A model generated the notes under the pieces. The model did not search any database and had not been told where the DNA came from. It saw nothing but the letters and a program-made list of their open reading frames with translations. DNA of 64,000 nucleotides, from the IMG/VR virus record IMGVR_UViG_3300006226_001703, positions 22,583 to 86,582 of that record; one strand, given 5' to 3'. Below are positions 26,971 to 62,217 of the stretch, piece after piece. Positions within the stretch are counted from its first letter, which is position 1; the number at the start of each line of letters is the position of its first letter. Both the position numbers and the translations under genes were made by a program. This DNA comes from a virus (lineage: Duplodnaviria > Caudoviricetes).

Positions 26971-26978
26971 ACTAAATA
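26971..26978 (+). promoter_or_regulatory. Class III late-type motif ACTAAATA, 3 nt before ATG
   Basis: actaaata-att-ATG, no SD. Confidence 0.6.
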
Positions 26979-28834: not shown

Positions 28835-28836
28835 AT

Positions 28837-28995
28837 ATGAGTGATGTATATGAAACAGCAACACAATGTGAATGTGAAGGCGAATGTGAAATCAAGTGCA
28901 CAAAAGGTTGCACACCTGAAAAACCAGAAGATGAAGTAAATGTCGACAACGACTTACAGAATGACCCTGCATTAGCTTACGGGGAAGATGCATAG
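28837..28995 (+). CDS. Small Cys/acidic peptide (52 aa, not in ORF track)
   Basis: MSDVYETATQCECEGECEIKCTKGCTPEKPEDE...; TATAAATA immediately upstream. Confidence 0.55.
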   Translation: MSDVYETATQCECEGECEIKCTKGCTPEKPEDEVNVDNDLQNDPALAYGEDA

Positions 28996-29002
28996 GAAAT
29001 AA

Positions 29003-30397
29003 ATGAAGACTTTTCAACAGATTTATGAAAATTCGTTAGTCCCAAATGGCCAGGGTGGAGCATTAAGACCGCAAGGATTAATGATCCACCATTCTGGAGG
29101 AAGAGGAACTGTTCAAGGTGTTATCAACGTTTTGAAACAGAGAGGATTAGCTTATCACTACATAATTGATAGAGAAGGAAAAGTCAACAGAATTGGAGAT
29201 ATAAACAGACAAGCATGGCATGCGGGTGTAGTTGAAAAGCTACCCCGCTTTAATAACCAAACTACTATTGGTATTTCATTAATTGCAAATGATGAAAATG
29301 ATGTTTTACCAGAACAGAGACAAGCTTGTCAACAATTAGCTCAGCAGTTGGGGCAGCAATATGGTTTTGACCCAACTAAAACTACAGTTGGACATGGAGA
29401 AGCAACTTCCAGAAAACAACCAACTGAAGGTGCAACAGCTAAAATGATTAGAGGTGAAGCAACACCTGAAATGCTAAATGCGCAATCAGCTCAAGGACAA
29501 CAAAGTGGAAGAAGTGGTGGAGGTAACATAATTACTAGAGCCATAGACAGAGTAAAAGGTGCATTCAAAAAGAAAAACATACCAGACTTAGTCAAAGATG
29601 TTATTGCTGGCAAATATGGTAATGGAAATCAAAGAAAACAAAAGCTAGACTCAGAATTTGGGCCTGGCACTTATCAAGAGGTACAAGCAGCTGTGAATAA
29701 GGAATTACAAGAGAACTTAAATAGTTTTATAGAGTATTCTAATAACTATAAACAAGTAACAGAACAAATGAGAGAAGAGCAACAAAATGCTCGTTTCGTT
29801 AAACATATTAGAGAAGGTAAATGGACCCCAACTGAAAAATTTACAGAAGCTTATGTTGAGTTAATTCCCCATATTAGTAAAGATGAATGGCCACTATTAA
29901 GAGAAACTCTAATGTTGCTTGCTTATCAAGAATCAAGAATCTTTAACCCATCATTTGCCTTAAGAGAAAATAAGTCAAACTTATTAGAAGACTATTTCTT
30001 AACAGCTGCATTTTCTAATCCATTAATTGAAAAGTTCTCATTAGATGAACGATTTGATGACACTAGAGAAAAACTTAATGAATTTCTTGGTGGATTAGTT
30101 GGTGGACTTGCCAAAAAAGCAGGTGGTGCTCTTTTGGGCAAAGTTGCTGGAGGCGGAGGAGGTGGTGGTCTTCTCGGTGGACTTAAATCAAAAATCGGCG
30201 GTCTCCTTGGAGGAGGAGGCGGACAAGGCGGGGGAGGTCTTGGCGGAATTATTAAGAATATGCTTGCAGGCGGGAAAATTGACAAAGGTCAAATTACTAA
30301 TATTGCCAAAGGTGTCTCAAAACAATTAGGAGACGGTATTAAACAGAATGTATTGCAAACGTTAGTTCAATCATTCGCAGGTGGTGGAGCAGCATAA
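29003..30397 (+). CDS. Putative head-packaged protein P1: amidase-like + Cpl-7 repeat + shared domain + Gly zipper
   Basis: MKTFQQIYE N-terminus; IHHS/YHYII/AWHAG; VIAGKYGNG..RK repeat; GKWTP...WPLLRET...RIFNPSF domain; poly-Gly tail. Confidence 0.7.
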   Translation: MKTFQQIYENSLVPNGQGGALRPQGLMIHHSGGRGTVQGVINVLKQRGLAYHYIIDREGKVNRIGDINRQAWHAGVVEKLPRFNNQTTIGISLIANDENDVLPEQRQACQQLAQQLGQQYGFDPTKTTVGHGEATSRKQPTEGATAKMIRGEATPEMLNAQSAQGQQSGRSGGGNIITRAIDRVKGAFKKKNIPDLVKDVIAGKYGNGNQRKQKLDSEFGPGTYQEVQAAVNKELQENLNSFIEYSNNYKQVTEQMREEQQNARFVKHIREGKWTPTEKFTEAYVELIPHISKDEWPLLRETLMLLAYQESRIFNPSFALRENKSNLLEDYFLTAAFSNPLIEKFSLDERFDDTREKLNEFLGGLVGGLAKKAGGALLGKVAGGGGGGGLLGGLKSKIGGLLGGGGGQGGGGLGGIIKNMLAGGKIDKGQITNIAKGVSKQLGDGIKQNVLQTLVQSFAGGGAA

Positions 30398-31326: not shown

Positions 31327-31541
31327 TGGCAGACTTAAAAGCAGCATGTGCTGCAGTAGTAGAATATTTTGATGAAATGTTAAATAAAACTTATTCAGGT
31401 CCTGCAACAGCAATGTTACAGGCTGAATTAAATAATCCGCAAACTAGTGAAATGACTAAGAATGCGATAGATATAGTAGAAGACACTTTAAAAGACGAAA
31501 TGGTAGATGACGTTGTAGGTGTACCAGAGGAGCAACAATAA
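31326..31541 (+). CDS. Small hypothetical protein within the array
   Basis: 71 aa, coupled to neighbours by TAATG overlaps. Confidence 0.55.
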   Translation: MADLKAACAAVVEYFDEMLNKTYSGPATAMLQAELNNPQTSEMTKNAIDIVEDTLKDEMVDDVVGVPEEQQ

Positions 31542-33289
31542 TGAATGATTTTGAAAAAATATTTAATGAAAGTAACAAAGAGTTTGTAAAAACTTATTCA
31601 CAAATATATGAACACATAAGAGAAGAGCAAGAAGCTTTAAGTGAAAATCAAATAATTATTGAAGCTGCAGCTGGTGGCTATTGGATTCCTGAGTTTAAAT
31701 TATCAGAATTCTATAAAGAAACAATGCACACTTTTCATGATAATGATTGGTCTATTTTAAGAGAAGCTATCCCAGAAATGGAAAGATTAGAACAAAAAAT
31801 ATTCCATAAATCATTTGAACATAAGAGTGATAATTATAAAAATAAATTATTAGAAAGTTATGCTAGAACTTCTTTATTTACTAACACACAACAATTAAGA
31901 GAAAGTAATAGCACATATAAAAATAGATTAGATAATAATAGAAAACGCTTAATTGAAAACACATCTTTTATTGTATTAAGAGAAGATGAAAGATTCAAAG
32001 ATCGTTTAGCTCAATTTTTAATAGACCATATTGAAGCAGGTAATCTTGATGTTGATACTGCTAAAACAGTACAGTCACTATATATGACAAATCCACAACA
32101 AGCTGCTGCACAATATAGTAATATTATAACAGCATTTAAAAATGGTTTAGCTCCAACTGAACAAGCAACTTTTGAAGCAACACTAGGCGGCCCCGCAAGA
32201 GATCAACATGAGGGTGGTTTAAGAAGATTTGGTGGTGGATTAGCAAAATTAGCAAGCGGTGTTTTAGGTGCTGTAATGATGATTCCACAAGCATTAAAAT
32301 TTACAGCAATTTTTACTCCAATTTGTGTTTTCGCTGGGCCGGCAGCTCCTGTAGTTGCATTTATTTTAGCTATTATTACTGTAATGTTATTAAATGCAGT
32401 TGCAAAATATGCAGCAGAAAAATTAACGGCATGGCTTGTACCAAAAATTATGGCTGCATGTAAAAAAGCCCCATTTAAGTTTATTAGAAATATTGCAAAT
32501 AATGCCCCTAATGCATTAGAAAGATTTTTAACTATAGTTATTTCAGCTTTAGTAACAATAGTTGTAATGATAGCAGGGGGGAAAATGGTAGCAGGTGGGG
32601 CTGGTAGATTAGCAGCTGGAATAGATGCAGCTAAAAGTTCAGGTGGTGGAATTGTTAATCAAGGAAGATCATTTACACAGGGATTATTTAGTAGAGATGC
32701 TGGAAGAACTGGAAGAGATATCTTTAAAACAGCAATGAAACCTGGTGAAGTTTCTATTAATCCAAATACAGGAAATCCGCTATCACTTACAGATCTTCCA
32801 GGTGTAAGTAGGTTAACCAATATTCCAGGAGCAAATAATGTAATTGGTGGATTAAATCAAATGGCAACAGCAGGCGGACGTTCATTGGCTGCCGGCATGG
32901 GTGCAGCAAATGGAATGAGTAATCTTGCAACCCAAGATATGAATTATCGTCCAAATGATAATCCAATGATGAATAGATATTATAGTCAATTACAAAACTC
33001 TTCATTATATGATTTCAGTGATATTTATATGAGATCAAAATTAAATGAAGGAGAAAAATTAGATGAAGGTCTAATTCAAAAAATTAAACAAATAGTTGAA
33101 GCTTTAAAAGCTAAAATTGGAGAAATAAAACAAGCTTGGCAACAATTACTAGCAGCAGCTAAGGGTGAATCACCTGAAGCAGCAGCTGAAGTAGAGAACT
33201 CTGGTGCTGATGAACAAAGCTCATCTGAAACAAATGAATCAGCAACATCAGAACAATCAGAGGAAAATGAAACTGAGGAACTAACATGA
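31541..33289 (+). CDS. Putative head-packaged protein P3: shared domain + TM helices
   Basis: MNDFEKIFNE..KTYSQIYE; GYWIP...WSILRE...KIF; hydrophobic AAPVVAFILAIITVMLL and FLTIVISALVTIVVMIAGG. Confidence 0.7.
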   Translation: MNDFEKIFNESNKEFVKTYSQIYEHIREEQEALSENQIIIEAAAGGYWIPEFKLSEFYKETMHTFHDNDWSILREAIPEMERLEQKIFHKSFEHKSDNYKNKLLESYARTSLFTNTQQLRESNSTYKNRLDNNRKRLIENTSFIVLREDERFKDRLAQFLIDHIEAGNLDVDTAKTVQSLYMTNPQQAAAQYSNIITAFKNGLAPTEQATFEATLGGPARDQHEGGLRRFGGGLAKLASGVLGAVMMIPQALKFTAIFTPICVFAGPAAPVVAFILAIITVMLLNAVAKYAAEKLTAWLVPKIMAACKKAPFKFIRNIANNAPNALERFLTIVISALVTIVVMIAGGKMVAGGAGRLAAGIDAAKSSGGGIVNQGRSFTQGLFSRDAGRTGRDIFKTAMKPGEVSINPNTGNPLSLTDLPGVSRLTNIPGANNVIGGLNQMATAGGRSLAAGMGAANGMSNLATQDMNYRPNDNPMMNRYYSQLQNSSLYDFSDIYMRSKLNEGEKLDEGLIQKIKQIVEALKAKIGEIKQAWQQLLAAAKGESPEAAAEVENSGADEQSSSETNESATSEQSEENETEELT

Positions 33290-34968
33290 AATTAGAAGAA
33301 AAAGTAAATGACATAATATCATTTGTAAACAATTATGTGCCTCTTAAAGAGAGAGAATTACAAGAAAGAAGTGACAGACTTTTTAACAGAAAATTAAGAG
33401 AAGGAAGATGGATTCCAAAAGAAAAATTATCCGTTATTTTTAAGTCAAGAATGCCAAAAACAGATGATAACTTTTTCAATTTAGTTTTAGAAGAAAGCTT
33501 AGATACTTTAATTAGATTAGAAGAAAAGATATTTAGTCCTGCTTTTTATAAAAATAAAAATAAAATACAACTATTAGAAACTTATTATAAAACGGCTATT
33601 TTAGAAAATGAAGATATAATTTTCCCATTAGCAGCATTAAGAGAAGCTGATCAACAGCAACAACCAATGGGAAGACATCAACAAAGAGGCATGCAAAGAG
33701 ATATGCGTGCACAACAACGACAACAGAACCGTCAAAATGCTTGGAATAAAGTTAAAAACTTTGGTAAGGGAATTATTGGTGGAATAAAAGGAGCTGTTCA
33801 AGGAGCTAGACAAGGTTTTCAACAACAACAGCAACCTCAGAATGACGGAAATCAACAACAAGATGACCAACAGAATCAAGACCAACAACAGCAGGACCAA
33901 AGTCAAGATCAAAATCAAGACCAACAGCAAGATCAGCAACAACCTCAAATGAGTAGAGAAGAAGCAATTCAAGCCGTTATTGATGGTAAGTTTGGAAATG
34001 GAGCTGCTAGACAGCAAGCATTACAAGATGCTGGCTTTGACCCAAAAGATATTCAACAAGGTGTTAACCAACAATTACAGGGACAGAATAACAATCAACA
34101 GCAACAACAAACTCAACAGCAACCACAAGAACAGAATAATAATCAACAAGCGCCTGAACAAAATAATCAGCAGCAACAAAATCAAGATAGTGGAAATAAT
34201 CAACAATCTAATAATGACCAACAGCAACAAGATCAGGGAAATAACAACCAACAACAATCAAATGATGATGGCGGAGATAATCAACAACAATCTGATGGTA
34301 ATAATGAACAACAGTCAAATGACCAACAACAACAAGATTCAGGCGGGAATGACCAGCAGCAACAAGATGACCAGTCAGGTGGTGACCAACAACAAGATAA
34401 TGGTGGACAACAAAACCAGGGAAATGACCAACAATCTCAAGATGGCGAAGAATTACAAGGAGAAGAACCGCAAGATACAACAGGTCAAAATAATGATGAA
34501 GATTTGAATGCTATTACTCCAGAAGGTTCACCCCCAGCTCCACAAAATGAACAAGCACCACCACCCCAACAACAGGGTAATGTAGTTGCAACATTAAAAG
34601 ATTCTGGAAGAGAAGTAACCGATAGAACACCTGTTGGTATGGCAATGCAAGCAGGTAAGAGTGGTATTTATCCTCCAGGCGGAAATAATATGATTGTTTT
34701 AGATGATGATTCATATGATGGTTTTTATACAGCAGCCAGATATAATATAAGTGAATTTAAAGATTATCAAATGGTAGATAAAAATCAAAATCCAATACAA
34801 AATAGTAATAATTATTTTGTAAGAGCTCCTCATATAATTGATGAACAAATAAATAAATATCGTTTTACAGCAATGAATGGTGGAGCAGGTAATAGAAAAA
34901 TTATAGTTGATATAGATACTGGTGGTGGAAATAATAGTTCTTCTAATAATAATAGAAATAGAAGATAA
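33286..34968 (+). CDS. Putative head-packaged protein P4: shared domain + Gln/Asn-rich region + Cpl-7 repeat
   Basis: GRWIP...EEKIFSPAF...LLETYYKT; AVIDGKFGNGAARQQAL; ~250-aa Q/N/D tract. Confidence 0.7.
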   Translation: MKLEEKVNDIISFVNNYVPLKERELQERSDRLFNRKLREGRWIPKEKLSVIFKSRMPKTDDNFFNLVLEESLDTLIRLEEKIFSPAFYKNKNKIQLLETYYKTAILENEDIIFPLAALREADQQQQPMGRHQQRGMQRDMRAQQRQQNRQNAWNKVKNFGKGIIGGIKGAVQGARQGFQQQQQPQNDGNQQQDDQQNQDQQQQDQSQDQNQDQQQDQQQPQMSREEAIQAVIDGKFGNGAARQQALQDAGFDPKDIQQGVNQQLQGQNNNQQQQQTQQQPQEQNNNQQAPEQNNQQQQNQDSGNNQQSNNDQQQQDQGNNNQQQSNDDGGDNQQQSDGNNEQQSNDQQQQDSGGNDQQQQDDQSGGDQQQDNGGQQNQGNDQQSQDGEELQGEEPQDTTGQNNDEDLNAITPEGSPPAPQNEQAPPPQQQGNVVATLKDSGREVTDRTPVGMAMQAGKSGIYPPGGNNMIVLDDDSYDGFYTAARYNISEFKDYQMVDKNQNPIQNSNNYFVRAPHIIDEQINKYRFTAMNGGAGNRKIIVDIDTGGGNNSSSNNNRNRR

Positions 34969-34976
34969 ACTAAATA
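34969..34976 (+). promoter_or_regulatory. Class III late-type motif ACTAAATA
   Basis: Between P4 and P5, followed by SD gagg. Confidence 0.5.
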
Positions 34977-34993
34977 TAAAGAGGAAATAATAG

Positions 34994-37015
34994 ATGAATT
35001 TTGAAAAATTGTACCGACAATCTAATCCAAAAGATGCTAAATTAGCGGCTATAAGAGAAGCTAATAATGAAGTTAAGGAAAGATTACAAGAATATGAAAA
35101 TAAAAATTTCTTAAAAGAATTAAGAAATGGTAGATGGTTTCCTCACTGTAGATTTTCAGAAGCTTATCTTGGTTTAATTCCTTTTACTAATAAAAAAGAC
35201 TGGCCAACTTTAAGAGAAACTATAATTAGATTAGAAAAAATAGAAGAAAAGATATTTAATCCAACTTTTAAAAGAAAAAATTTTAGAAGTAAAATTATCT
35301 TATTAGAACAATATTATAAAACTGGCACATTTGAAAGAATGAATACTATTAGAGAATCATTTAATAATGATAATTTAATAAAGAGAAGATTACAATTAAA
35401 TGAACAAGCTAAAATTATTAAAGAAAACTTTGAAGAATTAAATGAAGCCTTTTTCTTACCAGCATTAGGTTTAGGAGCCGGCGCACTTTGGGCTGGAAAT
35501 AAAATCAGAAATTGGTGGCAAAATAGAAGAAATAGAAATCAACCTCAGAACCAACAATCTCCAGCTGATGCAGCATTTAATCCACAAGGAAATGCAACAC
35601 CTCAAGAAGAGGCAGCAGCAGCAGCGGGAGCACCACCTGATCAAGCACAAGCAGCAGCAGTAGCAGCACAAACATCAACTGGTAATCAAGTTGAAAATAC
35701 AATGGCAGCTCAAGCAGCAGCACAACCTGGTGACTATATGATTAGATCAGATGGTACTAGAGTTGTTCTAAATCAGGGCGATATAACTTGGGCACAACAG
35801 AGAATCCAACAAGGTGCAAGTAGTGGTGGAGGAAGCTCTGGTGGTTCATCACAACAAGTACAACAACAGATAACTAGACTAGAAGCAAGAGCTGAAGAAG
35901 CAAGGGAAAGTGATAGCCCACGAGCTGAAGCAGAAGTTGAGAAGATAGAAAACGAAATTGAAGAGTTACAGGATGAAGCTGAAGAAGGTGGTGAAGCAAG
36001 CCCAGGAGAAGCAGCAGCAATAAGTGAAATGCCACCTGAACAAGTAGCAGCTGAAGATCCACAAGCACCAGAACCACAAGTAGCACCTCCAGCCGGAGCT
36101 GAACAACAAGGTCATGCTTATCAGATTCCAGCAGGCCCTTATGCTGGAACAACAGTTTACATTCCATATCGACAACCATTAAGCAACACAGGTACACCAG
36201 CATTTAAAGATGCAACTATGCAAGAACAAATTGGACACATAATGAAAACTGGTAACCAAATTACATTCTCGCCAACTCAAGGCGCAATGGCAGATCTTCA
36301 TGGACAGCAAGCGATGTCTCAAGCAACTCAACAAGCTGAAGCTCAAAGAGATCAAGCAATGTTAGATGCTTTCAAACAATCACCAAATTACACACAACTT
36401 GTTAGAATGTTTGGTGATGAACAAGCTGCATTACAACAATGGTTACAAACTCCGGAAGGACAGCAAGTTGCACAACAGGCAGAAGCTCAAGCTGAACAAT
36501 CAGTAGCAGCGGCACAACAAACGGTTCAAAGAGATACAAACAACTTTAATGCAGCTCAAGCAATTACAACTCAACAAGTTAACATTGGTGGTGTAAATGT
36601 TCCTGTAACTCCAATTCCAGGAGCAAGTGGTCAACAGGGAACTTTTGGTCAAGACTCTGGTGTAATTGGTCAAACACCTTCAGGAATCCCATTCTTTATG
36701 GTTCCAGAGCAACATAATATTCCACCTGAGCCAGCAGGCATTCAGGACTTACAAAGAGCAAAACAGAATGGTATGGTAAATGATGAAATGTTAAGAAGAT
36801 GGACTGCACAAGGTTCACAAGCTGTTCAATCAATAATTATTAAGACAATACAAAATGGACAGAATTTTAGACAAGAACAAATGACTGACCCACAAATTAG
36901 AAACTTTATAAATCAATTACACCCACAAGCTAGAATAACATCTGACAGACAATTAAGAAATTGGACAGGTTTAACTGACCAAGAATTTGCATCAAAATTA
37001 GGTAGTAGATATTAA
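34994..37015 (+). CDS. Putative head-packaged protein P5: shared domain + Ala/Gln/Pro-rich payload
   Basis: MNFEKLY; GRWFP...DWPTLRET...KIFNPTF...LLEQYYKT; LNE-AFFLPALG junction. Confidence 0.7.
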   Translation: MNFEKLYRQSNPKDAKLAAIREANNEVKERLQEYENKNFLKELRNGRWFPHCRFSEAYLGLIPFTNKKDWPTLRETIIRLEKIEEKIFNPTFKRKNFRSKIILLEQYYKTGTFERMNTIRESFNNDNLIKRRLQLNEQAKIIKENFEELNEAFFLPALGLGAGALWAGNKIRNWWQNRRNRNQPQNQQSPADAAFNPQGNATPQEEAAAAAGAPPDQAQAAAVAAQTSTGNQVENTMAAQAAAQPGDYMIRSDGTRVVLNQGDITWAQQRIQQGASSGGGSSGGSSQQVQQQITRLEARAEEARESDSPRAEAEVEKIENEIEELQDEAEEGGEASPGEAAAISEMPPEQVAAEDPQAPEPQVAPPAGAEQQGHAYQIPAGPYAGTTVYIPYRQPLSNTGTPAFKDATMQEQIGHIMKTGNQITFSPTQGAMADLHGQQAMSQATQQAEAQRDQAMLDAFKQSPNYTQLVRMFGDEQAALQQWLQTPEGQQVAQQAEAQAEQSVAAAQQTVQRDTNNFNAAQAITTQQVNIGGVNVPVTPIPGASGQQGTFGQDSGVIGQTPSGIPFFMVPEQHNIPPEPAGIQDLQRAKQNGMVNDEMLRRWTAQGSQAVQSIIIKTIQNGQNFRQEQMTDPQIRNFINQLHPQARITSDRQLRNWTGLTDQEFASKLGSRY

Positions 37016-37027
37016 GAGGAGAAATAA

Positions 37028-37753
37028 ATGAAATCATTTGAGCATATATTTGTAAAAGCAAATTATCCACAACACTTACAGGAGTATATCCAGCTTTTTG
37101 AAGCTGACCAAGCATATGCTAATTATCAACAAGCAAATCAGCCAAATGATTTATATGCTAGATCACAAAACTTAGCACAACAGGGCGCACAGAACTTTAC
37201 ACAAGGTCAAGGAATTGGCGGTGTAATGCAAGGTGCTGGACAAATGATGTTGGGTAATGCTGGAAAGAAACTTGGTTTTTTAAGTAGATTAGGAAAAGGA
37301 CTTGCGGGGTTAACACCCATTGGTGCCTTAATGAATCAGAAAAAAGCTAAACAAGAAAAAGAAGCTGCATTCAAAGCTGGTTATGAGCAGGGTCAAACTG
37401 ATGCTGCACAGGGACAGAATAATGCAGATCAGGCTGCTGCACAAGCTGGTGGTGAACAAGCTGCACAAGGCGAAAAAACAGATGCTGATTATCAGCAAGC
37501 TGCAAGAGATGTTTGGGCTGGCAGATATGGTAATGGCCAAGAGAGAGTTCAAGCTCTTCAAGCTGCTGGGTTTGACCCACAAAGAGTACAACAATTAGTA
37601 CAACAAAGTCAAGGTGGCGGTGGAAACAGCGGTGGCGGTAATAGTGGAGGCGGACAACAACAGCAAGCTGCTCCAGCACAACCTGAACAAACACAAGAAC
37701 CAGAACCAGTTCAAGAATCTTTTATGAGGATCTATCGAGCTTCAAGGAGATAA
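37028..37753 (+). CDS. Putative head-packaged protein P6: Gly/Gln-rich with Cpl-7 repeat
   Basis: MKSFEHIF; ARDVWAGRYGNGQERVQALQAAGFD. Confidence 0.65.
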   Translation: MKSFEHIFVKANYPQHLQEYIQLFEADQAYANYQQANQPNDLYARSQNLAQQGAQNFTQGQGIGGVMQGAGQMMLGNAGKKLGFLSRLGKGLAGLTPIGALMNQKKAKQEKEAAFKAGYEQGQTDAAQGQNNADQAAAQAGGEQAAQGEKTDADYQQAARDVWAGRYGNGQERVQALQAAGFDPQRVQQLVQQSQGGGGNSGGGNSGGGQQQQAAPAQPEQTQEPEPVQESFMRIYRASRR

Positions 37754-37755
37754 CT

Positions 37756-38487
37756 TTGAAGACATTTGCACAAATTCATGAAGACTGTCAACAACCACAA
37801 ATAAAAAGCTTCTCACAAATTCATGAAAGTTGTCGTATCAAATCTTTCGAAGAAATCTATCAACTAAATGAAGCAGCATCTCTTGAAAGTATCAGCGCAA
37901 TTAGCGACGCAATCTCAAATGGTCGAGCTTCAATGGCCAACAGTATCACAAATGCAACATCTGGCAAAGGACAAGCTGCTTCCAACATTGGTCAAATAGC
38001 AGCAGGCGCAGTTACTGGTGGTAGAGCCGGGGCTTTAGGAGCTGCTGCTGGCATCGCACAAAACGCTCTTAGCAATGTACAAACTTCATCAACATTTGGG
38101 GCAACAGCCAAAGGCGCATTGAGTGGTGCTTTAGATGGTTTTGCTTCTGGTGCAGGAAAAGGTGGAGGAATCGGTGGAGCAATTGGTGCTGTAGTTGGTG
38201 GTATTCAAGGAGCCATAGCCGCATTCCAAGATGCAAAAGCAGATGCGAAGGCAGCAGCAGAACAGGAAGACGCAGAAGATGCTGAAGCCGAAGATGCAGA
38301 CGCAGAAGCTGATGCTGAAAGTGATGCCGACTCTGATGCAGATGCTGGAGACAGTGATGCTGGAAGTGATAGCGATAGCGGTGGAGATTCTGGCGGAGAT
38401 AGTGGAGGCAGTGATTCAGGTGGCGGTGGAGACTCTGGAGGAGGCGACTCAGGCGGGGGCGGCGATTCCGGTGGAGGAGGAGAGTAG
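37756..38487 (+). CDS. Putative head-packaged protein P7: triple targeting-like motif, Gly zipper, D/S/G tail
   Basis: TTG start; KTFAQIHE, KSFSQIHE, KSFEEIYQLNE; GGIGGAIGAVVGG; acidic DSGG repeats. Confidence 0.65.
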   Translation: MKTFAQIHEDCQQPQIKSFSQIHESCRIKSFEEIYQLNEAASLESISAISDAISNGRASMANSITNATSGKGQAASNIGQIAAGAVTGGRAGALGAAAGIAQNALSNVQTSSTFGATAKGALSGALDGFASGAGKGGGIGGAIGAVVGGIQGAIAAFQDAKADAKAAAEQEDAEDAEAEDADAEADAESDADSDADAGDSDAGSDSDSGGDSGGDSGGSDSGGGGDSGGGDSGGGGDSGGGGE

Positions 38488-39036: not shown

Positions 39037-39847
39037 CTAATTCCTCCAACTTTCTCGAAAAACTTTCTATCATTGTTATCTTGTCAGTGAATGATTTGAT
39101 TCTCTCGAGGCCATAATGTTTACCCAAGAAAGATTCAAGCTCATCAGTAATCTCTCTGTTAACTACCAAATCATGAAGTTCAATTAAACTGTCTGATATT
39201 CCAACGTATGTTCCTTTTAAGAATGGCTTAACTTTATGAAGTCCACCCATTATAGTTCCAATAACATGATATTCACTGTAACAAATATTGTCATCATCAT
39301 CTCTAAAAAGATATTTTGGCTCGATAACTATATAGTTGTACAATGCATAATCATCATTTTGTAATCTTCTATTTCTAATATAATGTCCTGGAACTTCAGT
39401 TTTACTTTCACCACTTTTGACAGTTACAATGTTACCATCAGATGTGAATGAAAAGCCCTGCTCAAATAATGAGGACAATAAATAGTTAAATGGAATTCTA
39501 GCATCAAGAAGTTTTTTGATAAACTTAACACCATATTCAATTCTAAATCCATCATCCATTTCGAGAAGAGTTTTAATCTCTAATGCTAATCTATTATCCA
39601 ATGTGAAGTATTTTCCATTGTAGAAGACTTCAATTTCATCAGAGCCTTTTTCTTGTGTAAATGATATCTCATCATCTTCATAATTAAATGATCGATTTAT
39701 AATTATCATTATTTCACTTAATGTAGTTTTTTCTCTGTGTAAAATTTCAGCAATTCTGTTGAATCTTTTATCCCCTCTCGAGACTTGTAATATCTCTTTG
39801 CCAGTTGGGATAACTATTGCTTCATCAGTCAAAATATAGTTTAACAT
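39005..39847 (-). CDS. rIIB: rIIB-like protein
   Basis: Downstream of rIIA; F.KKLL...FSFTSDGNIVTVK resembles the rIIB ITxDGxxxAYK motif. Confidence 0.6.
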   Translation of the reverse strand: MLNYILTDEAIVIPTGKEILQVSRGDKRFNRIAEILHREKTTLSEIMIIINRSFNYEDDEISFTQEKGSDEIEVFYNGKYFTLDNRLALEIKTLLEMDDGFRIEYGVKFIKKLLDARIPFNYLLSSLFEQGFSFTSDGNIVTVKSGESKTEVPGHYIRNRRLQNDDYALYNYIVIEPKYLFRDDDDNICYSEYHVIGTIMGGLHKVKPFLKGTYVGISDSLIELHDLVVNREITDELESFLGKHYGLERIKSFTDKITMIESFSRKLEELGVPMDTIFAS

Positions 39848-42321
39848 AATTTCTCCACATTTGCTACATAATCCACCACTATTTGGAAAGCTTCCTTAGT
39901 TTCAAAAGCTCTTCCAGAAAAGTTTTGAGTCACTTTTAACATTGGGTACTTGTTGAACATATCAGTTATGTAATCTGTTCTTGCTGAGTTGTCAAAATTC
40001 TTAATTATGATATCAAGTCCAACAAGTTTTTTCATTATGTCCTTGTGGACTTTTGTATCATAAAAAGTTCTGTAGGTGTTATTCAGCATTTTAGTTAAAG
40101 TATTCCACACAGATAATTGTCTGGCTGAACCAGTTTCCTGAGTTTTGATTTCCTCTAATCTTCTAATTGCTTCCTTTCCAAAAGCTGTGTCATTAAAACC
40201 AACATATTTGCTACCAAGTTCAAGAACATATTCTGCTGACTTAGTGTAATCAAATATTGAATAACCATACAAGATATGGGTAGTCATATAAGTGACTATC
40301 TTATCAATATTTGCGCTCACTTGCTTAATGAAGTAATCATCAATGTAAGTCCAGTTTTTGTTTTTCATTATGTTCGCATTCTTGAAATAGTTGTAACTGA
40401 TCATTAAGTGATGAGCTGGTTGCTGAATAAAGTCACGAATATAAGTATTCTTCAACATTGAGTGCTTGTTGTACTCGGAGTTTATCATCACACCTTTTTG
40501 CTCGATTGTGAATGCCTTATTTCTGGGCAGTTTTGGATTGGCTTTCAGATCCTTAAAGTTTGGGTTTATCCAATATCCTCTCTGGTCAACCTTTCCCTCG
40601 AATAACTCGTACGTAGTATTAGTCAGCTTGAGGGCGTCTACTGGGTCAATATATTTACCGGATATTGCATCATAGACTGTGTAGCTGTCCTTGTCATCCG
40701 CCAGAGTGGCTGATTTAGGCACCCTGGGCTTCGGAACTTTAATTGGGACGAATGATGAAGTTTTCTTTGAGACAAACTCTGGGAACATTTTAGTTATGAT
40801 TTCAGAAGTCTTTTCATCTACGAAAATTGATTCCCTAATGTTTATGTCGTTCATTAATTGGAACTTATTCTCTAAAATAGCGGGAATTAAAGTCCAGTAC
40901 TTCTTTTTTGCTGCTGCCTTACCAAAAAATGCGTCGAGCCTTTCCTTAACTAATGGTTCATCAATAATAAGTAAAGTGTTATATTCACCCTTCATTATTG
41001 CTTTGCCCAAGTCATAAACATAATCTTCGCCTTTTGTGTTGCTTGCACAGTAAACTGGAATGTTAGTAACTTCAAAGCGATTATTACGACGGGCTCTGGG
41101 CTTATACATATAAGTACCAGTTATGAGTTTATTAGTTATATGCTGCTCAAATTGCTTGTTTATTTGCTTGAACTCTTCAATTTCGTCAAACTCACCAACT
41201 AATATTCTGGGAAGGTGGGGAATGTTATTTCTGTTCTTGATGAAATTATTTGGAGTTGAAGCCTTCTTAACAAAGTCAGCCTTAAACTCATTGAAGTCCT
41301 TGTGGAAAATATCCTTCAGATATTCAATTGTAGTTTTGCTATAATTTAAGCTTTCTCTTGAAGGCTGGATTGAAACTGCTCCAATTGGAATGTGAATGAG
41401 CTTCTTAAACTCTGTGTCATACCTTCCATGAACGGCTGGAAAGTTGATGCTAATTTTACAAGCATTCTCTGTCTCAGTGTTTATGAGTTGAGTTACATTT
41501 ACATCATAATACACTTGGCCCATTACTACACCGTGAGTGCTTCCATAACTCTTCAATATTTTGGATAAGAAGTTCCAAGTGTCAGAAGTCTTATTTAACT
41601 CGTTGTAATTCTTAACGAAATTACGAGTTGCTTCATAAATAGCGGGGCCATCCTCAGCTGTTTTCTTTGTCATGTAGTCAAAGAAAAGAGATGCCATGAC
41701 GTTGTAAAAGTCCTCTTCTCCACGAACTATCAAAGGCATTTTATCAAAGAAGAGAAAAGTTTTCAAAGCTGCTTTGTGAAAGTTTTGAGTGTCCTCAGGT
41801 TTAACAAGCACTTCAACACTTGTTCCAGTTTCATTAAAAGCCTCGGAAGTGTTTACTCGATTGACATTAGGAATTCCATTTGAGTCTTTATAGATTATGT
41901 ACTGATTTCTTTCACCATCTTTTGCAGTAGTCAAAGTAAATTGCTGAGTGTATGCGAGCGGAGTTTTTCCACCGAGTCCAAGAGCTCCAATAACTTTGTC
42001 GCTGTGTGATTTAGTTGACTTGCCGTATGACTTATAAACTGTCATAACATCATCATGAGTCATACCAATACCATTGTCTTCAATTATGAGCGAGTTAAAC
42101 TGATGGTTTGGAAGATAAACTTTAATTGGTTCAATATTACCCGCTTCAATGTTTGCATCTATCGCATTACAAGAAAGTTCCCTCACGATTGCTCTGATTG
42201 GGTCTTCATAAATCTTGCTTGACAGAATATCAAACATTTTGCTATTAGCGGCAATAGTAAACTCGCTGCTTTCATTTTCAAGGCAGTTAGTTACATCATA
42301 AACTTTGTCATTTAACTTCAT
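39841..42321 (-). CDS. rIIA: rIIA-like protein (GHKL/Hsp90-like ATPase N-terminus)
   Basis: MFDILSSKIYEDPIRAIVRELSCNAIDA, IEDNGIGM, STKSHSDKVIGALGLGGKTPLAYT. Confidence 0.88.
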   Translation of the reverse strand: MKLNDKVYDVTNCLENESSEFTIAANSKMFDILSSKIYEDPIRAIVRELSCNAIDANIEAGNIEPIKVYLPNHQFNSLIIEDNGIGMTHDDVMTVYKSYGKSTKSHSDKVIGALGLGGKTPLAYTQQFTLTTAKDGERNQYIIYKDSNGIPNVNRVNTSEAFNETGTSVEVLVKPEDTQNFHKAALKTFLFFDKMPLIVRGEEDFYNVMASLFFDYMTKKTAEDGPAIYEATRNFVKNYNELNKTSDTWNFLSKILKSYGSTHGVVMGQVYYDVNVTQLINTETENACKISINFPAVHGRYDTEFKKLIHIPIGAVSIQPSRESLNYSKTTIEYLKDIFHKDFNEFKADFVKKASTPNNFIKNRNNIPHLPRILVGEFDEIEEFKQINKQFEQHITNKLITGTYMYKPRARRNNRFEVTNIPVYCASNTKGEDYVYDLGKAIMKGEYNTLLIIDEPLVKERLDAFFGKAAAKKKYWTLIPAILENKFQLMNDINIRESIFVDEKTSEIITKMFPEFVSKKTSSFVPIKVPKPRVPKSATLADDKDSYTVYDAISGKYIDPVDALKLTNTTYELFEGKVDQRGYWINPNFKDLKANPKLPRNKAFTIEQKGVMINSEYNKHSMLKNTYIRDFIQQPAHHLMISYNYFKNANIMKNKNWTYIDDYFIKQVSANIDKIVTYMTTHILYGYSIFDYTKSAEYVLELGSKYVGFNDTAFGKEAIRRLEEIKTQETGSARQLSVWNTLTKMLNNTYRTFYDTKVHKDIMKKLVGLDIIIKNFDNSARTDYITDMFNKYPMLKVTQNFSGRAFETKEAFQIVVDYVANVEKLC

Positions 42322-46935: not shown

Positions 46936-46943
46936 ACTAAATA
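46936..46943 (+). promoter_or_regulatory. Class III late-type motif ACTAAATA, 3 nt before ATG
   Basis: actaaata-aat-ATG. Confidence 0.6.
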
Positions 46944-52313: not shown

Positions 52314-52792
52314 TGAACTTAGATTTTTGGAAAAAAACTGGCACAATTAAACCCTTCACACTAGAGGAGTGGGACCAATTCACAGAAGACATAGTTAAGC
52401 TGCCAAAGTTAGATTCATTTATCAATACACCAATGAGAAAATCAAAAGTCAAAAAGGGAGTTAACGTTCAATCTGAAAAGTTTGATAGTTTTACTGAGTT
52501 CGCATTCGTACAATATCAACGCCTAATTCAATTTGCTATTGTTGAACGAAACGTTAAGTCGTTATTCTTTCACTACACTGATACTAATGGAAAGATGTGT
52601 AAGTTTTTTCCAGATTTTCTTGTCAATGGAGTCCCAGTCGAGATAAAAGGCCGACTATCTGAAAAGGATAGATGCAAGTTAGAACAATGTACTAATGTCG
52701 TATGGTATTTTCAAGCTGATGTGAATAGAATGATGGGAGAATTGGATGCTAAAATCCCAAATTGGCGGTCTGACTTTTTGCAAACAAATTAG
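52313..52792 (+). CDS. PD-(D/E)XK endonuclease, TnsA-N-like (free-standing homing-type)
   Basis: FHYTDTNG...FFPDFLVNGVPVEIKG. Confidence 0.7.
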   Translation: MNLDFWKKTGTIKPFTLEEWDQFTEDIVKLPKLDSFINTPMRKSKVKKGVNVQSEKFDSFTEFAFVQYQRLIQFAIVERNVKSLFFHYTDTNGKMCKFFPDFLVNGVPVEIKGRLSEKDRCKLEQCTNVVWYFQADVNRMMGELDAKIPNWRSDFLQTN

Positions 52793-52983
52793 AAGAATCT
52801 TCTCATATTGTGTTTTTCATATAATCTCATAGCGTCTATATACTTATTGATAGCATCAGTTATTTCAAAAAATTGCTCATTAGTGCTAACGGCTTCTTGA
52901 ATTAGTTTAAGATAATTATCTCTTAATCCATTAACTTCAAGCAATCTTTCATCTAATAATTCATAATCAACTCCCATTAACAT
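52789..52983 (-). CDS. Hypothetical protein
   Basis: Small helical ORF ending the minus-strand operon. Confidence 0.5.
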   Translation of the reverse strand: MLMGVDYELLDERLLEVNGLRDNYLKLIQEAVSTNEQFFEITDAINKYIDAMRLYEKHNMRRFF

Positions 52984-53365
52984 ACTCCACTATTTTAAGA
53001 GGCACGCCTTTTTTAGTACAATAATCTATACAATGTTTAGTGCCTCGAGATTTTCCGTCCCAAAAAAAGAGCGCAAAGCGGGACCTCTTTTCTTCAATAA
53101 AATCAACCATTTCCATGTTGCGGAGAATTCCAGCCTGCTTTCCATGCTTCTTCCAATCTGCTGGAAACTCTAATACAGCTCCGCAATTTTCTTTTCCCCA
53201 CTTTGCGCCCAGAGAATCGGCACCTCTCGCCATACCACTAATGATAACAATTTCATCTTTTTTCAATTCCTCTGTTTCTTTAATAGTTCTTTCTAATAAT
53301 CCGTAATCGTCGAAATCACGACCACCCGCAATTAGTAGATATAACGAGGTGCCACTTACTTTCAA
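52967..53365 (-). CDS. SLOG-family (DUF2493/YspA-like) protein
   Basis: IAGGRDF, ISGMARGADSLG, PADW..HGKQAG..RN..MV, FWDGKSRGT. Confidence 0.88.
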   Translation of the reverse strand: MKVSGTSLYLLIAGGRDFDDYGLLERTIKETEELKKDEIVIISGMARGADSLGAKWGKENCGAVLEFPADWKKHGKQAGILRNMEMVDFIEEKRSRFALFFWDGKSRGTKHCIDYCTKKGVPLKIVEYVNGS

Positions 53366-54567
53366 ATTTTTCTCCGTTTAACTTTTGGCTGTTCGTCTCC
53401 TTTTACTACAAATGTATCATCTTTCATAACACCCGCAGGCACCCAAACTTTGTCGTTGACTGTGACTCCTGCGTAGTTATCTCCTAAAACATATCTAAAA
53501 AATCTCGTTAGTGCAATTTGATATTCACCTCTTTTTAGATATGCATTTTTAGATAATTCAATAAACACTGTTTCTAATTCGCTAAAATATTTGCCATCAG
53601 CAATTTGTGCTGGATATTTCCATTTCCATTTTTCTGAATCTTCAATAAACTGAAGTCCAAAAGTTCGATAAGTTGAAGCATCACCAATAACTTTCAATAA
53701 TAAGCCAAACTTATCTTGATAATCAGTTCCCATTATAGTTTTGAAAACATTTTCCGTTTTATTTCCATGAGATAAATCTGCCAAAACTGCTGCTGCATCA
53801 TCATAAGAGACAATGTCAAAAGTTTCCTTAATCATATTGATATCAAATATTTTACTTTCATAACATTGCTCAAGCATTTGAATTGCTTCTCTAAATGATG
53901 ATTTGCTATTTTCAGCAATAAATTTTAATCCTTCAGTTAAGAACTCTTTTGGACAGTCTACTAATTTCTTTTTCTGACAAATACCACCAAGATACATATA
54001 GATTTCATCATTAGTTGGAACTTTCATTTTCCAGTTTTTACATCTTGATTGTAATGCACCTGGATTTTTCCCAGCCAACTTACTCATTGCTGTAAATATA
54101 AAAAAGAACCCAGATTTTGGAGACTGAGTTTCTATTAAGAACTTATCAATTGCTGATGCATGAAAACCTTGAGTTTCATCACATATTAGAACTTTAGCTC
54201 TATCTCTAATTGCCGGAGTTAAAAAGAATGTATCAAGAATCTTTTTAACGTCATCAGTTGACATCATTGTGCCATTTAGATAAGCAATATCTCTATCATA
54301 AGTTTCGTTATTTACAGCTAAACAAGTTGGACAAGTTTCACAAGGTTCCCCATCTTTGTTTATGTTTTTACAAGCAATTGATTTTGCTAATATCTTAGCA
54401 AGAACAGTTTTACCACTTCCCCATTGGCCCAAGAAAAAAGTTGACTTATCAAACTTTTGAGTTTTCCTTTTTGATTTAATATGATTAACGATGATATCTT
54501 GGCCATAGACATCCTCTAAAGTTTTGGGCGCGTCCACTATGTACCAATCTGAAAATCCAACTGACAT
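53362..54567 (-). CDS. dnaX: DNA polymerase III gamma/tau-like clamp loader
   Basis: PKTLEDVYGQ, GQWGSGKT, CETCPTC, ICDE, LQSRC. Confidence 0.88.
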   Translation of the reverse strand: MSVGFSDWYIVDAPKTLEDVYGQDIIVNHIKSKRKTQKFDKSTFFLGQWGSGKTVLAKILAKSIACKNINKDGEPCETCPTCLAVNNETYDRDIAYLNGTMMSTDDVKKILDTFFLTPAIRDRAKVLICDETQGFHASAIDKFLIETQSPKSGFFFIFTAMSKLAGKNPGALQSRCKNWKMKVPTNDEIYMYLGGICQKKKLVDCPKEFLTEGLKFIAENSKSSFREAIQMLEQCYESKIFDINMIKETFDIVSYDDAAAVLADLSHGNKTENVFKTIMGTDYQDKFGLLLKVIGDASTYRTFGLQFIEDSEKWKWKYPAQIADGKYFSELETVFIELSKNAYLKRGEYQIALTRFFRYVLGDNYAGVTVNDKVWVPAGVMKDDTFVVKGDEQPKVKRRKI

Positions 54568-54591
54568 ATTTACCTCTCGATTATTTTTATT

Positions 54592-54601
54592 TATATTAAC
54601 T
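54592..54601 (-). promoter_or_regulatory. Class II motif AGTTAATATA upstream of dnaX
   Basis: Recurrent motif. Confidence 0.55.
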
Positions 54602-54889
54602 AAAATAGTCTATCATATCTAACTGTTTCATTGCCTTTTCTACTCTTGACTCAAAAGTTTTGATTCTGTTGTCACAATATTGATTTTGACTCTTAATCAC
54701 TTTTCTTTCTAATTCATGAGTTGTTTTTTCTAGCTGTCTTTTAATTCCTTCGACAATATCAATGCAGTTATCTTTCAATATCTTTTCTAATATTTTGACA
54801 TAATTTTCATTTGCTTCAATTCTTCTTTCTAATCTTTCAATATGGGGTGCAATTAATTCATTGAATTCTTGTGTATCTTTTAATGTCAT
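54596..54889 (-). CDS. Hypothetical coiled-coil protein
   Basis: 97 aa. Confidence 0.55.
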   Translation of the reverse strand: MTLKDTQEFNELIAPHIERLERRIEANENYVKILEKILKDNCIDIVEGIKRQLEKTTHELERKVIKSQNQYCDNRIKTFESRVEKAMKQLDMIDYFS

Positions 54890-55284
54890 TAGTCAAATAG
54901 AAGTTCAACCCTTCCCATCTCCTCTTGTACTGCTTTCTTTGCCATTCCCTTAATGATATTATCTACATTTTTAATTGACTCATCTAATAGTTTTGCTAAT
55001 TCTGACTGATGTATATTACGAAACTCATCCATCATCCACTTCAATGATGCAACACCTGGTCCGCCCATCGACTGTACAATTATTTCGAGCTGTCTAACTT
55101 TTTCTTCTAATTCATGAAATCTATCAACAACACCAAATGTTGTATCTCCAGTTGATATTATTACATCAGTATGTCGAGGAGTGTAATTTGACATTGTGAT
55201 ATTACTATCAGATATCGCATAATTAGAGGCATCAATTGGGACGCTTACATCAGGTTTATTTGCAAACTTATCTAGTGCTGGCAT
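54889..55284 (-). CDS. Hypothetical protein
   Basis: 131 aa; class II motif (55290-55299) 5 nt before ATG. Confidence 0.55.
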   Translation of the reverse strand: MPALDKFANKPDVSVPIDASNYAISDSNITMSNYTPRHTDVIISTGDTTFGVVDRFHELEEKVRQLEIIVQSMGGPGVASLKWMMDEFRNIHQSELAKLLDESIKNVDNIIKGMAKKAVQEEMGRVELLFD

Positions 55285-55288
55285 GTTA

Positions 55289-55837
55289 TTATATTAACTG
55301 ACTAAACTTTGATTCATAACCAGTAATAAATGCATCTATTAGTTCTTTGTGAATTCTTCTTAATTTTCTATTTTTCTTAACATATTTGATGTTATTATAC
55401 ATTCTAGAAACTTGGTCTACTTTTGGTTTATCTAACAAGTTATACAAACAGTCACCAAGTTTCACAGTTAAAGCATCATCTGATAGTCTAACCATTTTTC
55501 TGGACATGTAATTTTCTTTGTCTTCTTTTTTGATATTTGGAAGGTTAGTCAATTCATCAACTAAAATGGCGACTTCTTCATCAAACATGTCTTCGAGATT
55601 AGCAAATGAAACTTTACAATCCTCTAAAGTGTCATGCAACTCTGCAGCACAGAGAATGTTTTCATCTTTGATTCCATAGCCTTCTAATGTGTCAGCAATT
55701 CCTTGTGGATGAACCCAATATCTATCACCAGAACCTTTACGAACTTGTCCTTCATTATCATGGGCGATGCGAGCATATTCTCTTGCTAATGCTTGTTTAC
55801 GAGAGACTATTTCATAAAGTTGTTGGAACGTTTTCAT
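55289..55837 (-). CDS. Small alarmone hydrolase-like HD protein (RelA/SpoT HD, Mesh1-like) with capsid-targeting-like N-terminus
   Basis: AH..GQVRKGSGDRYWVHP, AAELHDTLED, F..EVA.LVDELT, VKLGDCLYN; starts MKTFQQLYE. Confidence 0.88.
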   Translation of the reverse strand: MKTFQQLYEIVSRKQALAREYARIAHDNEGQVRKGSGDRYWVHPQGIADTLEGYGIKDENILCAAELHDTLEDCKVSFANLEDMFDEEVAILVDELTNLPNIKKEDKENYMSRKMVRLSDDALTVKLGDCLYNLLDKPKVDQVSRMYNNIKYVKKNRKLRRIHKELIDAFITGYESKFSQLI

Positions 55838-56186
55838 ATTTAATTAGTTGGGATAACTCTTCCCCTTCTAACCATCTGGAAGTTATTGGCTCAATTATGT
55901 ACTTTCTCTTATTGTCCAATAGAGTTGTAGTAACTGGAACCTCTGCGAACACAAGTTCCAGTACTCTAAAAGTCATAGTATCATTTTCAGATATCTTAAT
56001 AGCAGCTCTTTTAATTGCAATTTTCTTAGCTTTTTGAATATCAGCAATAGGTGTAACATTTGACGTTACATGTCTCTTTTCATCTTTGATAATCTCGATT
56101 ATAACGAGATATCTTTTTTCACTAAAGAGCCGTTTCTCTTCAATCTCAATGCCAAGTTCTTTTGCAACTAAAGTTTCTAATTCCAT
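55812..56186 (-). CDS. Hypothetical protein
   Basis: 124 aa. Confidence 0.5.
   Translation of the reverse strand: MELETLVAKELGIEIEEKRLFSEKRYLVIIEIIKDEKRHVTSNVTPIADIQKAKKIAIKRAAIKISENDTMTFRVLELVFAEVPVTTTLLDNKRKYIIEPITSRWLEGEELSQLIKYENVPTTL
55841..55848 (-). promoter_or_regulatory. Class III late-type motif ACTAATTA, 3 nt before the HD hydrolase ATG
   Basis: actaatta-aat-ATG, same geometry as at 26971 and 46936. Confidence 0.55.
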
Positions 56187-58539: not shown

Positions 58540-58959
58540 TTATTTAGTGTTCTCTCCTGTTTCTGAAATTTTCCATTCAATTCTTCCGTCATCAAAGAAG
58601 AGACGTTCAAATTTAATGTTGCTATCCTCATCTGTTTTTAATGGAGGACGGGCTAATGGTATAGAAGGAATTTCCATACCATGATAATCTATTTCATTAA
58701 TCTCGCATATCATCAAAAGCTTTTCTTTAAACTCAACAAACATTCCATTTTGGAGTTCACTTCCTTTGAGATCATATACTTGATTATTGATATTTACTTT
58801 GAATATCCAATGAGGAAAATTAGTAACTCTAACTTCCTGTAATTTTAATTTACCATTTGGCTGCATCACTTCAACATCTGGAAAACGAATTGATAATGCT
58901 TTACCAGTAAATATTGGTGGTCCTAATGGCTCTAACGGTGTATCAACTTCTAGTCCCAT
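58540..58959 (-). CDS. Hypothetical protein
   Basis: 139 aa. Confidence 0.55.
   Translation of the reverse strand: MGLEVDTPLEPLGPPIFTGKALSIRFPDVEVMQPNGKLKLQEVRVTNFPHWIFKVNINNQVYDLKGSELQNGMFVEFKEKLLMICEINEIDYHGMEIPSIPLARPPLKTDEDSNIKFERLFFDDGRIEWKISETGENTK
58541..58548 (-). promoter_or_regulatory. Class III late-type motif ACTAAATA, 3 nt before the glycosyltransferase ATG
   Basis: actaaata-aat-ATG. Confidence 0.55.
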
Positions 58960-61710: not shown

Positions 61711-62217
61711 TCAACTCTTCTTTTCAACTATATGTATCTCGAAATTAGAATCCTTAAAGATAGCAACAATCATCGCTTTAACTATTTCCCAATCGCCACC
61801 AGCTAATCCACAACCCAAGTTTTTTGGAAAACCAATCACATGAGAATAATTCCCATTAGCATAATCACCACATAAGTTTCTAAACTTTTCTAAACAGATA
61901 TAAAGAGCTTCATAATTAAGATATCTTTTTCCATCTTTGCCAAACTTATTTTGAGCAAACATATTACAGATAATTTTAGCTTGCCGATTTGGTTGATTTT
62001 TAATCATTTGAATTTGCCCCAACAAATCTTCTGGCTCTTTAAATGATTTTTCGTTTCTTTTACAACCTTCTATATAAGCTTCATAAACTTCTGGATAAGT
62101 TGCTCTAATTTGTCCAGCTATTCCAGAACCCATTGCTCCTTGACAATTAACGACATGAGCAATGATTATTGCATGTTCATCAGTAACTAAATCGCCTTCT
62201 CTTTCAATCAATTTCAT
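61711..62217 (-). CDS. Macrodomain (Poa1/TARG1-like ADP-ribose hydrolase)
   Basis: EGDL, AHVVNCQGAMGSGIAGQI..YPEVY, NMFAQ, FPKNLGCGLAGGDW. Confidence 0.9.
   Translation of the reverse strand: MKLIEREGDLVTDEHAIIIAHVVNCQGAMGSGIAGQIRATYPEVYEAYIEGCKRNEKSFKEPEDLLGQIQMIKNQPNRQAKIICNMFAQNKFGKDGKRYLNYEALYICLEKFRNLCGDYANGNYSHVIGFPKNLGCGLAGGDWEIVKAMIVAIFKDSNFEIHIVEKKS

Follow-up and report, generated by a model that had tools for sequence, protein, structure and literature searches.

The stretch of DNA analysed here (the window; 64,000 nucleotides (nt), positions 22,583 to 86,582 of the IMG/VR virus record IMGVR_UViG_3300006226_001703, Caudoviricetes) is part of an 86.6-kb contig with a G+C content of 34 %, rated about 26 % complete. 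The contig encodes rIIA, an RnlA-like ligase, GroEL, Dda-like and DnaB-like helicases, a clamp loader and a tail tube protein. Among a glycosyltransferase, small proteins and the clamp loader lies the gene in question, which encodes a stand-alone RelA/SpoT-type HD hydrolase (small alarmone hydrolase, SAH), begins with a short leader peptide shared with other proteins of the window, and is preceded by a promoter-like motif (Table 1). The small proteins beside it gave no match to PHROGs, no DNA near-identical to the window was present in the phage collection, and peptide-pattern searches of IMG/VR found no relatives of either the hydrolase or the amidase listed in Table 1. A search with the clamp loader identified the IMG/VR contig G001 (329,018 bp, with terminal repeats and rated complete), and the present contig is collinear with G001 between 232 and 329 kb. 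The gene order of glycosyltransferase, small open reading frame (ORF), hydrolase and clamp loader is kept in this relative.

The hydrolase matched the Pfam family HD_4 (PF13328; E 8.8e-14, 52 bits against a cut-off of 27.2 bits) and PHROG 990, 'metal-dependent phosphohydrolase' (E 2.8e-26), while phmmer comparison against the PDB returned the hydrolase domains of Rel and SpoT, Mesh1 and Lmo0812 (E 2e-11 to 1e-9). The HP (H43), LHDTLED (residues 67-73) and KLGDCLYN (126-133) motifs are all intact. Alignment of 66 homologues showed that Y40, H43, H68, D69, D129 and N133 are invariant in the family, with R33, E72 and D73 at least 90 % conserved, and the metal-binding residues H43, H68-D69 and D129, as well as the catalytic residues E72-D73, R33 and N133, align with those of Rel and Mesh1. 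An AlphaFold2 model was obtained with a predicted local distance difference test score (pLDDT) of 94.2 and a predicted template modelling score (pTM) of 0.89. Foldseek placed this model closest to human and fly Mesh1 (TM 0.77-0.79; 5vxa 0.77/0.79), followed by RelH and the P. aeruginosa SAH (7qod, 6yvc; TM about 0.75), while the (p)ppApp hydrolase Aph1 fits it less well (TMq 0.59). The protein is a single domain, with one Pfam family over its 182 amino acids (aa) and no synthetase or regulatory domain, and a domain search for RelA_SpoT synthetases (PF04607) found none in this contig or in G001. Given the HD_4 match, the conserved catalytic residues, the Mesh1-like fold and the absence of a synthetase domain, the window protein is, as judged from sequence and model, an intact stand-alone SAH, with alarmones as its predicted substrate class.

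The leader of the hydrolase must be translated, since an in-frame stop lies two codons before the ATG and no alternative start is available ahead of helix alpha-1. In the AlphaFold2 model, residues 1-10 form a separate short helix, which is divided from the core helix alpha-1 by a break at residues 11-12. Four cultured phage SAHs begin only three to five residues ahead of helix alpha-1 and have no leader, and the peptide can thus be regarded as an add-on. It differs in one residue from the start of the amidase, the 'P1' of the initial annotation; this likeness, and the intact RelA/SpoT-type HD domain with its HP, LHDTLED and KLGD..YN motifs, had both been pointed out there and are borne out here. 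Five of the 27 bases differ between the leader codons of the two genes, four of them synonymously, which indicates that the peptide is conserved and is not a recent DNA copy. The motif K[TS][FY]x[QE][IL][YFLH] occurs directly after Met1 in three of the 111 predicted proteins here (none in 200 composition-preserving shuffles) and in five of the 431 proteins of G001 (seven after correction of two starts called a few codons early; 0.01 in shuffles), while the remaining six copies all lie within the first 30 residues of their proteins. Looser variants (MNDFEKIFNE, MKSFEHIF and MKDFNQIYE) are also present, and tags may be repeated within one N-terminus (Table 1). Nearly all tags finish in (I/L/F)-x-E at residues 7-12, with cleavage-type endings of LYE in the hydrolase and IYE, IHE, IFE, ILE, LKE and LNE in the other tagged proteins. 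By its position and recurrence, the leader is a real position-specific tag common to virion-type proteins.

Table 1. Features of the window, and of the complete relative G001 where indicated
Feature	Position	Strand	Basis or remark
Stand-alone RelA/SpoT-type HD hydrolase (SAH), 182 aa	55289..55837	-	Pfam HD_4, PHROG 990, PDB matches, AlphaFold2 model
Codons for leader MKTFQQLYE, ending in L-x-E site	55811..55837	-	Strictly N-terminal motif; pLDDT 57 over residues 1-10
Class III promoter-like motif ACTAATTA, 3 nt (aat) before the hydrolase ATG	55841..55848	-	Sequence scan
ORF, 124 aa, function unassigned	55812..56186	-	Last 26 nt overlap the hydrolase start (55812-55837)
Amidase_2 and CW_7 protein, 464 aa, starts MKTFQQIYE	29003..30397	+	Domain matches
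Protein, 582 aa, starts MNDFEKIFNE, second tag copy KTYSQIYE at residues 17-24	31541..33289	+	Motif scan
Protein, 243 aa, three tandem tags in first 36 residues (KTFAQIHE, KSFSQIHE, KSFEEIYQ)	37756..38487	+	Motif scan
Class III motif ACTAAATA, 3 nt before ATG of gene 26982, first in tagged-protein operon	26971..26978	+	Sequence scan
Class III motif ACTAAATA, 3 nt before ATG of 1788-aa protein (46947)	46936..46943	+	Sequence scan
Class III motif ACTAAATA, 3 nt before ATG of 786-aa GT2 and GT4 glycosyltransferase (58537)	58541..58548	-	Sequence scan
G001 protein, 723 aa, gp21-type prohead protease domain and coiled coil	G001 52741-54912 (L011:14741-16912)		hhalign

Several further observations can be made on the tagged proteins. 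The gene for the 243-aa protein with three tandem tags has a TTG start and a strong Shine-Dalgarno sequence. Four proteins encoded between 28121 and 37753 carry Amidase_2 or CW_7 modules, the latter being characteristic of the lysins of phages that infect Gram-positive hosts. Neither the amidase nor the tail tube protein matched cultured phages by tblastn.

In sequence, the leader of the hydrolase is very close to the capsid-targeting leader of phage T4. Translation of the T4 record shows that ipII and ipIII start with MKTYQEFIAE and ipI with MKTFKEFTSTTTPVSTITE (MKTFKEF...). The ten-residue T4 leader carries even foreign proteins into the scaffolding core, where it is then cut off by the protease gp21 (PMC3012670, PMC10229621, PMC5694885). 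A candidate for the corresponding protease is encoded in G001, in the form of a 723-aa protein. When a profile built from 54 homologues of this protein was compared with that of gp21, hhalign gave a probability of 87 % (E 3.8e-6, 118 columns, 29 % identity), and the conserved gp21-type motifs NxNKRxYP, xHP and GxSSxGxG align with NGNKRIYP, CDHP and GTSSSGFG. One source names a homologue of this protein 'Prohead core protein serine protease'. The remainder of the protein consists of a coiled coil of about 450 residues, and the whole therefore looks like a putative gp21-type prohead protease fused to a scaffold. Metagenomes contain more than 100 homologues, 600-840 aa in length.

Tags also cluster around this gene and around the putative portal. 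A tagged 175-aa gene, which starts with MKTFDEIYKLNE, lies directly upstream of the G001 protease gene, while in the relative L037 the genes just after the protease start with MKKLFEQIY and MKLFEQIY. The putative G001 portal (PHROG 213, E 5e-4) is flanked by tagged genes. Comparison of about 30 candidate G001 head proteins with PHROGs and Pfam yielded only this weak portal match and a 705-aa histidine-kinase-like protein (G001 164185-166302, L029:4185-6302; PHROG 10912 'kinase', E 1.5e-44), whose gene sits in the putative head module with the portal candidate on one side and tagged genes on the other. Searches with T4 gp18 to gp24 gave no phmmer match among the G001 proteins. A 226-aa gene just after the gene for the 1229-aa DUF6267 protein of G001 was considered as a protease and rejected, as its product is an HD-superfamily protein (PF01966; G001 136690-137370, L016:3690-4370); it starts with the tag-like MIKLFEEIYQQ.

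Tagged hydrolases are also found in other phages. The homologue P0083 starts with MKTFKDFIQE and is encoded in a 167-kb T4-like contig together with UvsW, UvsY and a gp47-like gene, and the gene next to it starts with MKTFKEFLLE. Similar leaders are present in P0066 and P0074, while four longer HD proteins (P0010, P0017, P0020 and P0046) begin with ...FESILNE or ...FENILNE. In P0011 (647 aa), which derives from the same sample series as the window phage, the tag is internal. This protein reads ...RLQE-KTFGKILQE-IVTQDYARELAKKAHDD, so that the tag and the E-IV(T/S) junction match those of the window hydrolase but are placed after an N-terminal part of 467 residues. In three further homologues the HD domain is joined to a sequence related to the 161-aa gene that adjoins the portal candidate of G001. 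Furthermore, small ORFs starting with MKTFQQFYE or MKTFKQFQE (L006:7863-8087 and L007:7825-8075), one of them beside a terminase, occur in unrelated IMG/VR contigs, which suggests that the leader grammar is widespread in uncultured phages.

Two side observations concern other enzymes. On the P0011 contig (ENA ERZ27257344, 3078 bp), the next gene encodes a 188-aa protein with a weak match to ART-PolyVal, the ADP-ribosyltransferase domain of injected polyvalent proteins. In the window, a 168-aa protein (61711-62217) with a weak Macro-domain match and a strong match to PHROG 335 'phosphatase' may be another enzyme directed against nucleotide or ADP-ribose signals.

Three intergenic motif classes sort the genes across the contig (for example at 39841-42321, 53362-54567 and 46947). 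CTTATAT is found before rIIA, the RNA ligase and ATPases and GTTAATNT before the clamp loader, helicases and small genes, while large plus-strand structural-type genes are headed by the class III motif ACTAA[ATC]T[AT]. The initial annotation held that the upstream motif of the hydrolase has the geometry of those at 26982 and 46947. The geometry is indeed equal, with a difference of one base, these two genes having ACTAAATA-att/aat-ATG and the hydrolase ACTAATTA-aat-ATG. Counts of the exact octamer were dropped as evidence, being at chance level (six found against 5.25 expected), and only its placement is informative. On the coding strand, 17 copies of ACTAA[ATC]T[AT] lie no more than 45 nt ahead of a start here, against 1.3 expected, and 86 do so in G001, against 5.7 expected. 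The spacing peaks sharply at 2-3 nt from the ATG, with about half of the occurrences, and has a second mode at 13-21 nt, where a Shine-Dalgarno sequence comes next. The hydrolase orthologues of G001 (ACTAAATA-tac-ATG) and of the metagenome sequence L003 (ACTAATTT-aa-ATG) both keep the motif, and it is thus found at 3/3 hydrolase genes when that of the window is included. Before the latter gene it falls inside the coding sequence of the overlapping 124-aa ORF, which has an orthologue in G001 (40 % identity) that does not overlap the hydrolase gene.

As a mark of structural genes, which is how it had initially been taken, the motif fails. In the window it also precedes the 786-aa glycosyltransferase gene, which lies two genes upstream of the hydrolase, the gene for a 582-aa ATPase and that for a homing endonuclease. 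In G001, likewise, it stands before giant genes, the putative portal gene and the protease operon, and also before homing endonucleases, NrdD and the glycosyltransferase. Class III therefore fits co-expression with the morphogenesis genes without being a label of structural genes, and the timing is predicted to be late. No claim is made for a gp55-like late sigma factor, for which phmmer gave only a hint (E 0.018) and PHROG support was absent.

Late timing, packaging, cleavage, injection and substrate are all inferred, and together they give the following model. The hydrolase gene would be expressed with the morphogenesis genes from the class III (ACTAA[A/T]TA) element, and the tag MKTFQQLYE would recruit the enzyme into the assembling prohead core in the manner of the T4 capsid-targeting sequence. 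A gp21-type prohead protease would then probably cut the tag off after L-Y-E, leaving a mature Mn2+-dependent hydrolase (from about residue 10) that is retained in the head and passes with the DNA into the next cell. There it would strip 3'-pyrophosphates from (p)ppGpp, (p)ppApp or tRNA modified by toxic synthetases, ahead of phage gene expression. That the hydrolase is tagged, packaged in the head, cut and injected to erase alarmones or the products of toxic small alarmone synthetases (toxSAS) is given an even chance on the present sequence analysis. A broader proposal, put forward with somewhat less assurance than that, is that SAHs are recurrent virion-delivered cargo, with T4-like phages and the lineage of about 330 kb sharing an ancient MKTF...(I/L)xE leader, and that, ahead of any phage transcription, they disarm both the stringent response and abortive infection by toxSAS (CapRel type).

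Several observations weigh against packaging in the head. The two closest orthologues lack the tag, with the syntenic G001 hydrolase (42 % identity) starting with MRLQELHPQG and that of L003 (56 % identity) with MKLKEMSNEQ. Reading these as degenerate tags was considered and dropped, as an L-x-E at residues 3-5 is too little to count. The expectation that orthologues would keep the leader thus fails for the nearest relatives, while it holds for several more distant homologues. Among the head proteins of giant phages, processing is likewise present or absent between orthologues (PMC5694885). As the untagged orthologues keep the class III motif, late-type expression needs no packaging. Moreover, with only 2-3 nt between motif and ATG, a T4-type late promoter could not keep that ATG in the transcript, and class III may give leaderless mRNAs through an unusual polymerase geometry, or may act otherwise. 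The protease was seen only in relatives, and its assignment comes from one profile-profile comparison together with motif conservation; the gp21-homologue profile matched the 723-aa protein weakly by hmmsearch (E 0.074), a search of G001 with the Pfam S77 profile returned nothing, and neither did phmmer comparison of the protease domain with the PDB. The residue following the predicted cut is Ile, as opposed to a small residue in T4 ipII and ipIII. The head genes lie off this contig, which represents about a quarter of the genome. Finally, the tagged array of the window (26982-38487) comes after the tail-tube gene and weakly matches tape-measure and tail-lysin PHROGs, and the tag could thus address the tail, not the head.

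The alternative that best withstands the evidence, though a rather unlikely one, is a late cytoplasmic hydrolase that is never packaged. Such an enzyme would lower alarmones late in infection or undo capsid-sensing (CapRel-type) synthetases, with the leader serving stability, turnover or some other contact. Cultured phage SAHs have no leader, and leaderless stand-alone phage enzymes, acting in the cytoplasm, neutralise every toxic synthetase tested (PMC7229694), while CapRel is activated by a late product, a major capsid protein (PMC9712102). The conservation of the class III motif at a like distance from the ATG of untagged orthologues also agrees with this alternative. What it leaves unexplained is the presence of the same position-specific peptide on unrelated virion-type proteins, on genes adjoining the protease and putative portal of relatives and, repeatedly, on the hydrolases of other phages, as well as the match of the leader to the T4 head-targeting leader.

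Delivery could also take place by way of the tail, with the tag acting as a virion address for the tail lumen or baseplate and the enzyme travelling with tape-measure-like ejection proteins. The position of the tagged proteins of the window directly after the tail-tube gene, their amidase and CW_7 modules and their weak tape-measure and tail-lysin matches would be accounted for in this manner. In G001, however, the putative portal and the gp21-like protease-scaffold gene have tagged neighbours, and among known peptides the T4 head leader is the one nearest to the tag, so that a tail address is considered improbable. That the hydrolase counteracts an alarmone synthetase toxin carried by the phage itself, as Aph1 does with MuF-Apk2, instead of acting against host signalling, appears very improbable indeed. 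Some phages are known to encode (p)ppApp synthetase toxins in clusters with SAH-like immunity enzymes (PMC10083569, PMC12226406), but the domain search of this contig and of the complete G001 found no synthetase domain of such a toxin, the neighbours of the hydrolase are those given above, and its fold is nearer to Mesh1 and SAH than to Aph1. That the shared N-terminus reflects chance or favoured codons after the start, with no peptide function, can hardly be credited. Bacterial and phage proteins often start with MK- or MKT-, but the shuffles produced no match, leaders of the same peptide differ synonymously, copies occur in tandem within a single N-terminus and the internal copy of P0011 lies at the same domain junction.

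The head-packaged hydrolase proposed here can be set beside several known systems. With PbcSpo of the Salmonella phage PVP-SE1, PaSpo of SSU5, Mesh1, RelH and the P. aeruginosa SAH, the window enzyme shares the single HD_4 domain, the catalytic residues and the fold. It differs from the cultured phage SAHs in its additional leader of 10-12 residues, which suggests delivery in the virion over synthesis after infection. In T4, the proteins IPI, IPII, IPIII and Alt likewise carry a short leader of the form MKT[FY]x[EQ][FIL]...(I/L)xE on unrelated proteins of one phage. The protease gp21 of T4 has a putative counterpart in the window lineage, the cargo varies between related phages in both, and IPI* is an injected counter-defence protein (PMC3012670). 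In contrast to T4, the cargo of the window phage would be an alarmone hydrolase, the lineage of about 330 kb has no sequence-level match to T4 gp20 to gp24, the putative G001 protease continues into a long coiled coil, and the tags are sometimes tandem and, in one homologue, internal.

The ejection proteins of phiKZ and SPN3US provide a second comparison, in that these giant phages have a gp21-related protease cutting after Glu and paralogous head proteins with conserved N-termini (PMC5694885). Their propeptides mostly exceed 100 residues and carry an (A/S/G)xE site, while the leader of the window is T4-like in length with (I/L)xE. Aph1 of the MuF-Apk2 clusters is also a phage-encoded HD-type alarmone hydrolase found near head-associated proteins (PMC10083569). 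Its proposed role is that of an immunity protein, and packaging of Aph1 is not known; the window gene, for its part, lacks both a partner synthetase and a Tis1-like gene.

Phage SAHs and their proposed bypass of alarmone and toxSAS defence have been published (PMC7229694, PMC7824862), and of the virion-delivered counter-defence put forward in the initial annotation only the delivery in the virion is new. A literature search found no publication joining 'alarmone' and 'capsid targeting sequence'. What appears new is a tagged SAH in a giant phage lineage very distant from T4, with a putative protease-scaffold fusion in a relative. Phage alarmone hydrolases have so far been thought counter-immune only as proteins made after infection. 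If the model is true, an enzyme already made when it comes in with the DNA can act before the host starts sensing, and erasers of nucleotide signals would join T4 IPI* as injected anti-defence proteins. The likenesses described above further suggest that the T4 head-targeting grammar (MKT[FY]... with (I/L)xE and a gp21-type protease) extends to very distant giant phages, in which case the N-terminal tag would be a simple marker with which to list injected proteins in the genomes of uncultured phages.

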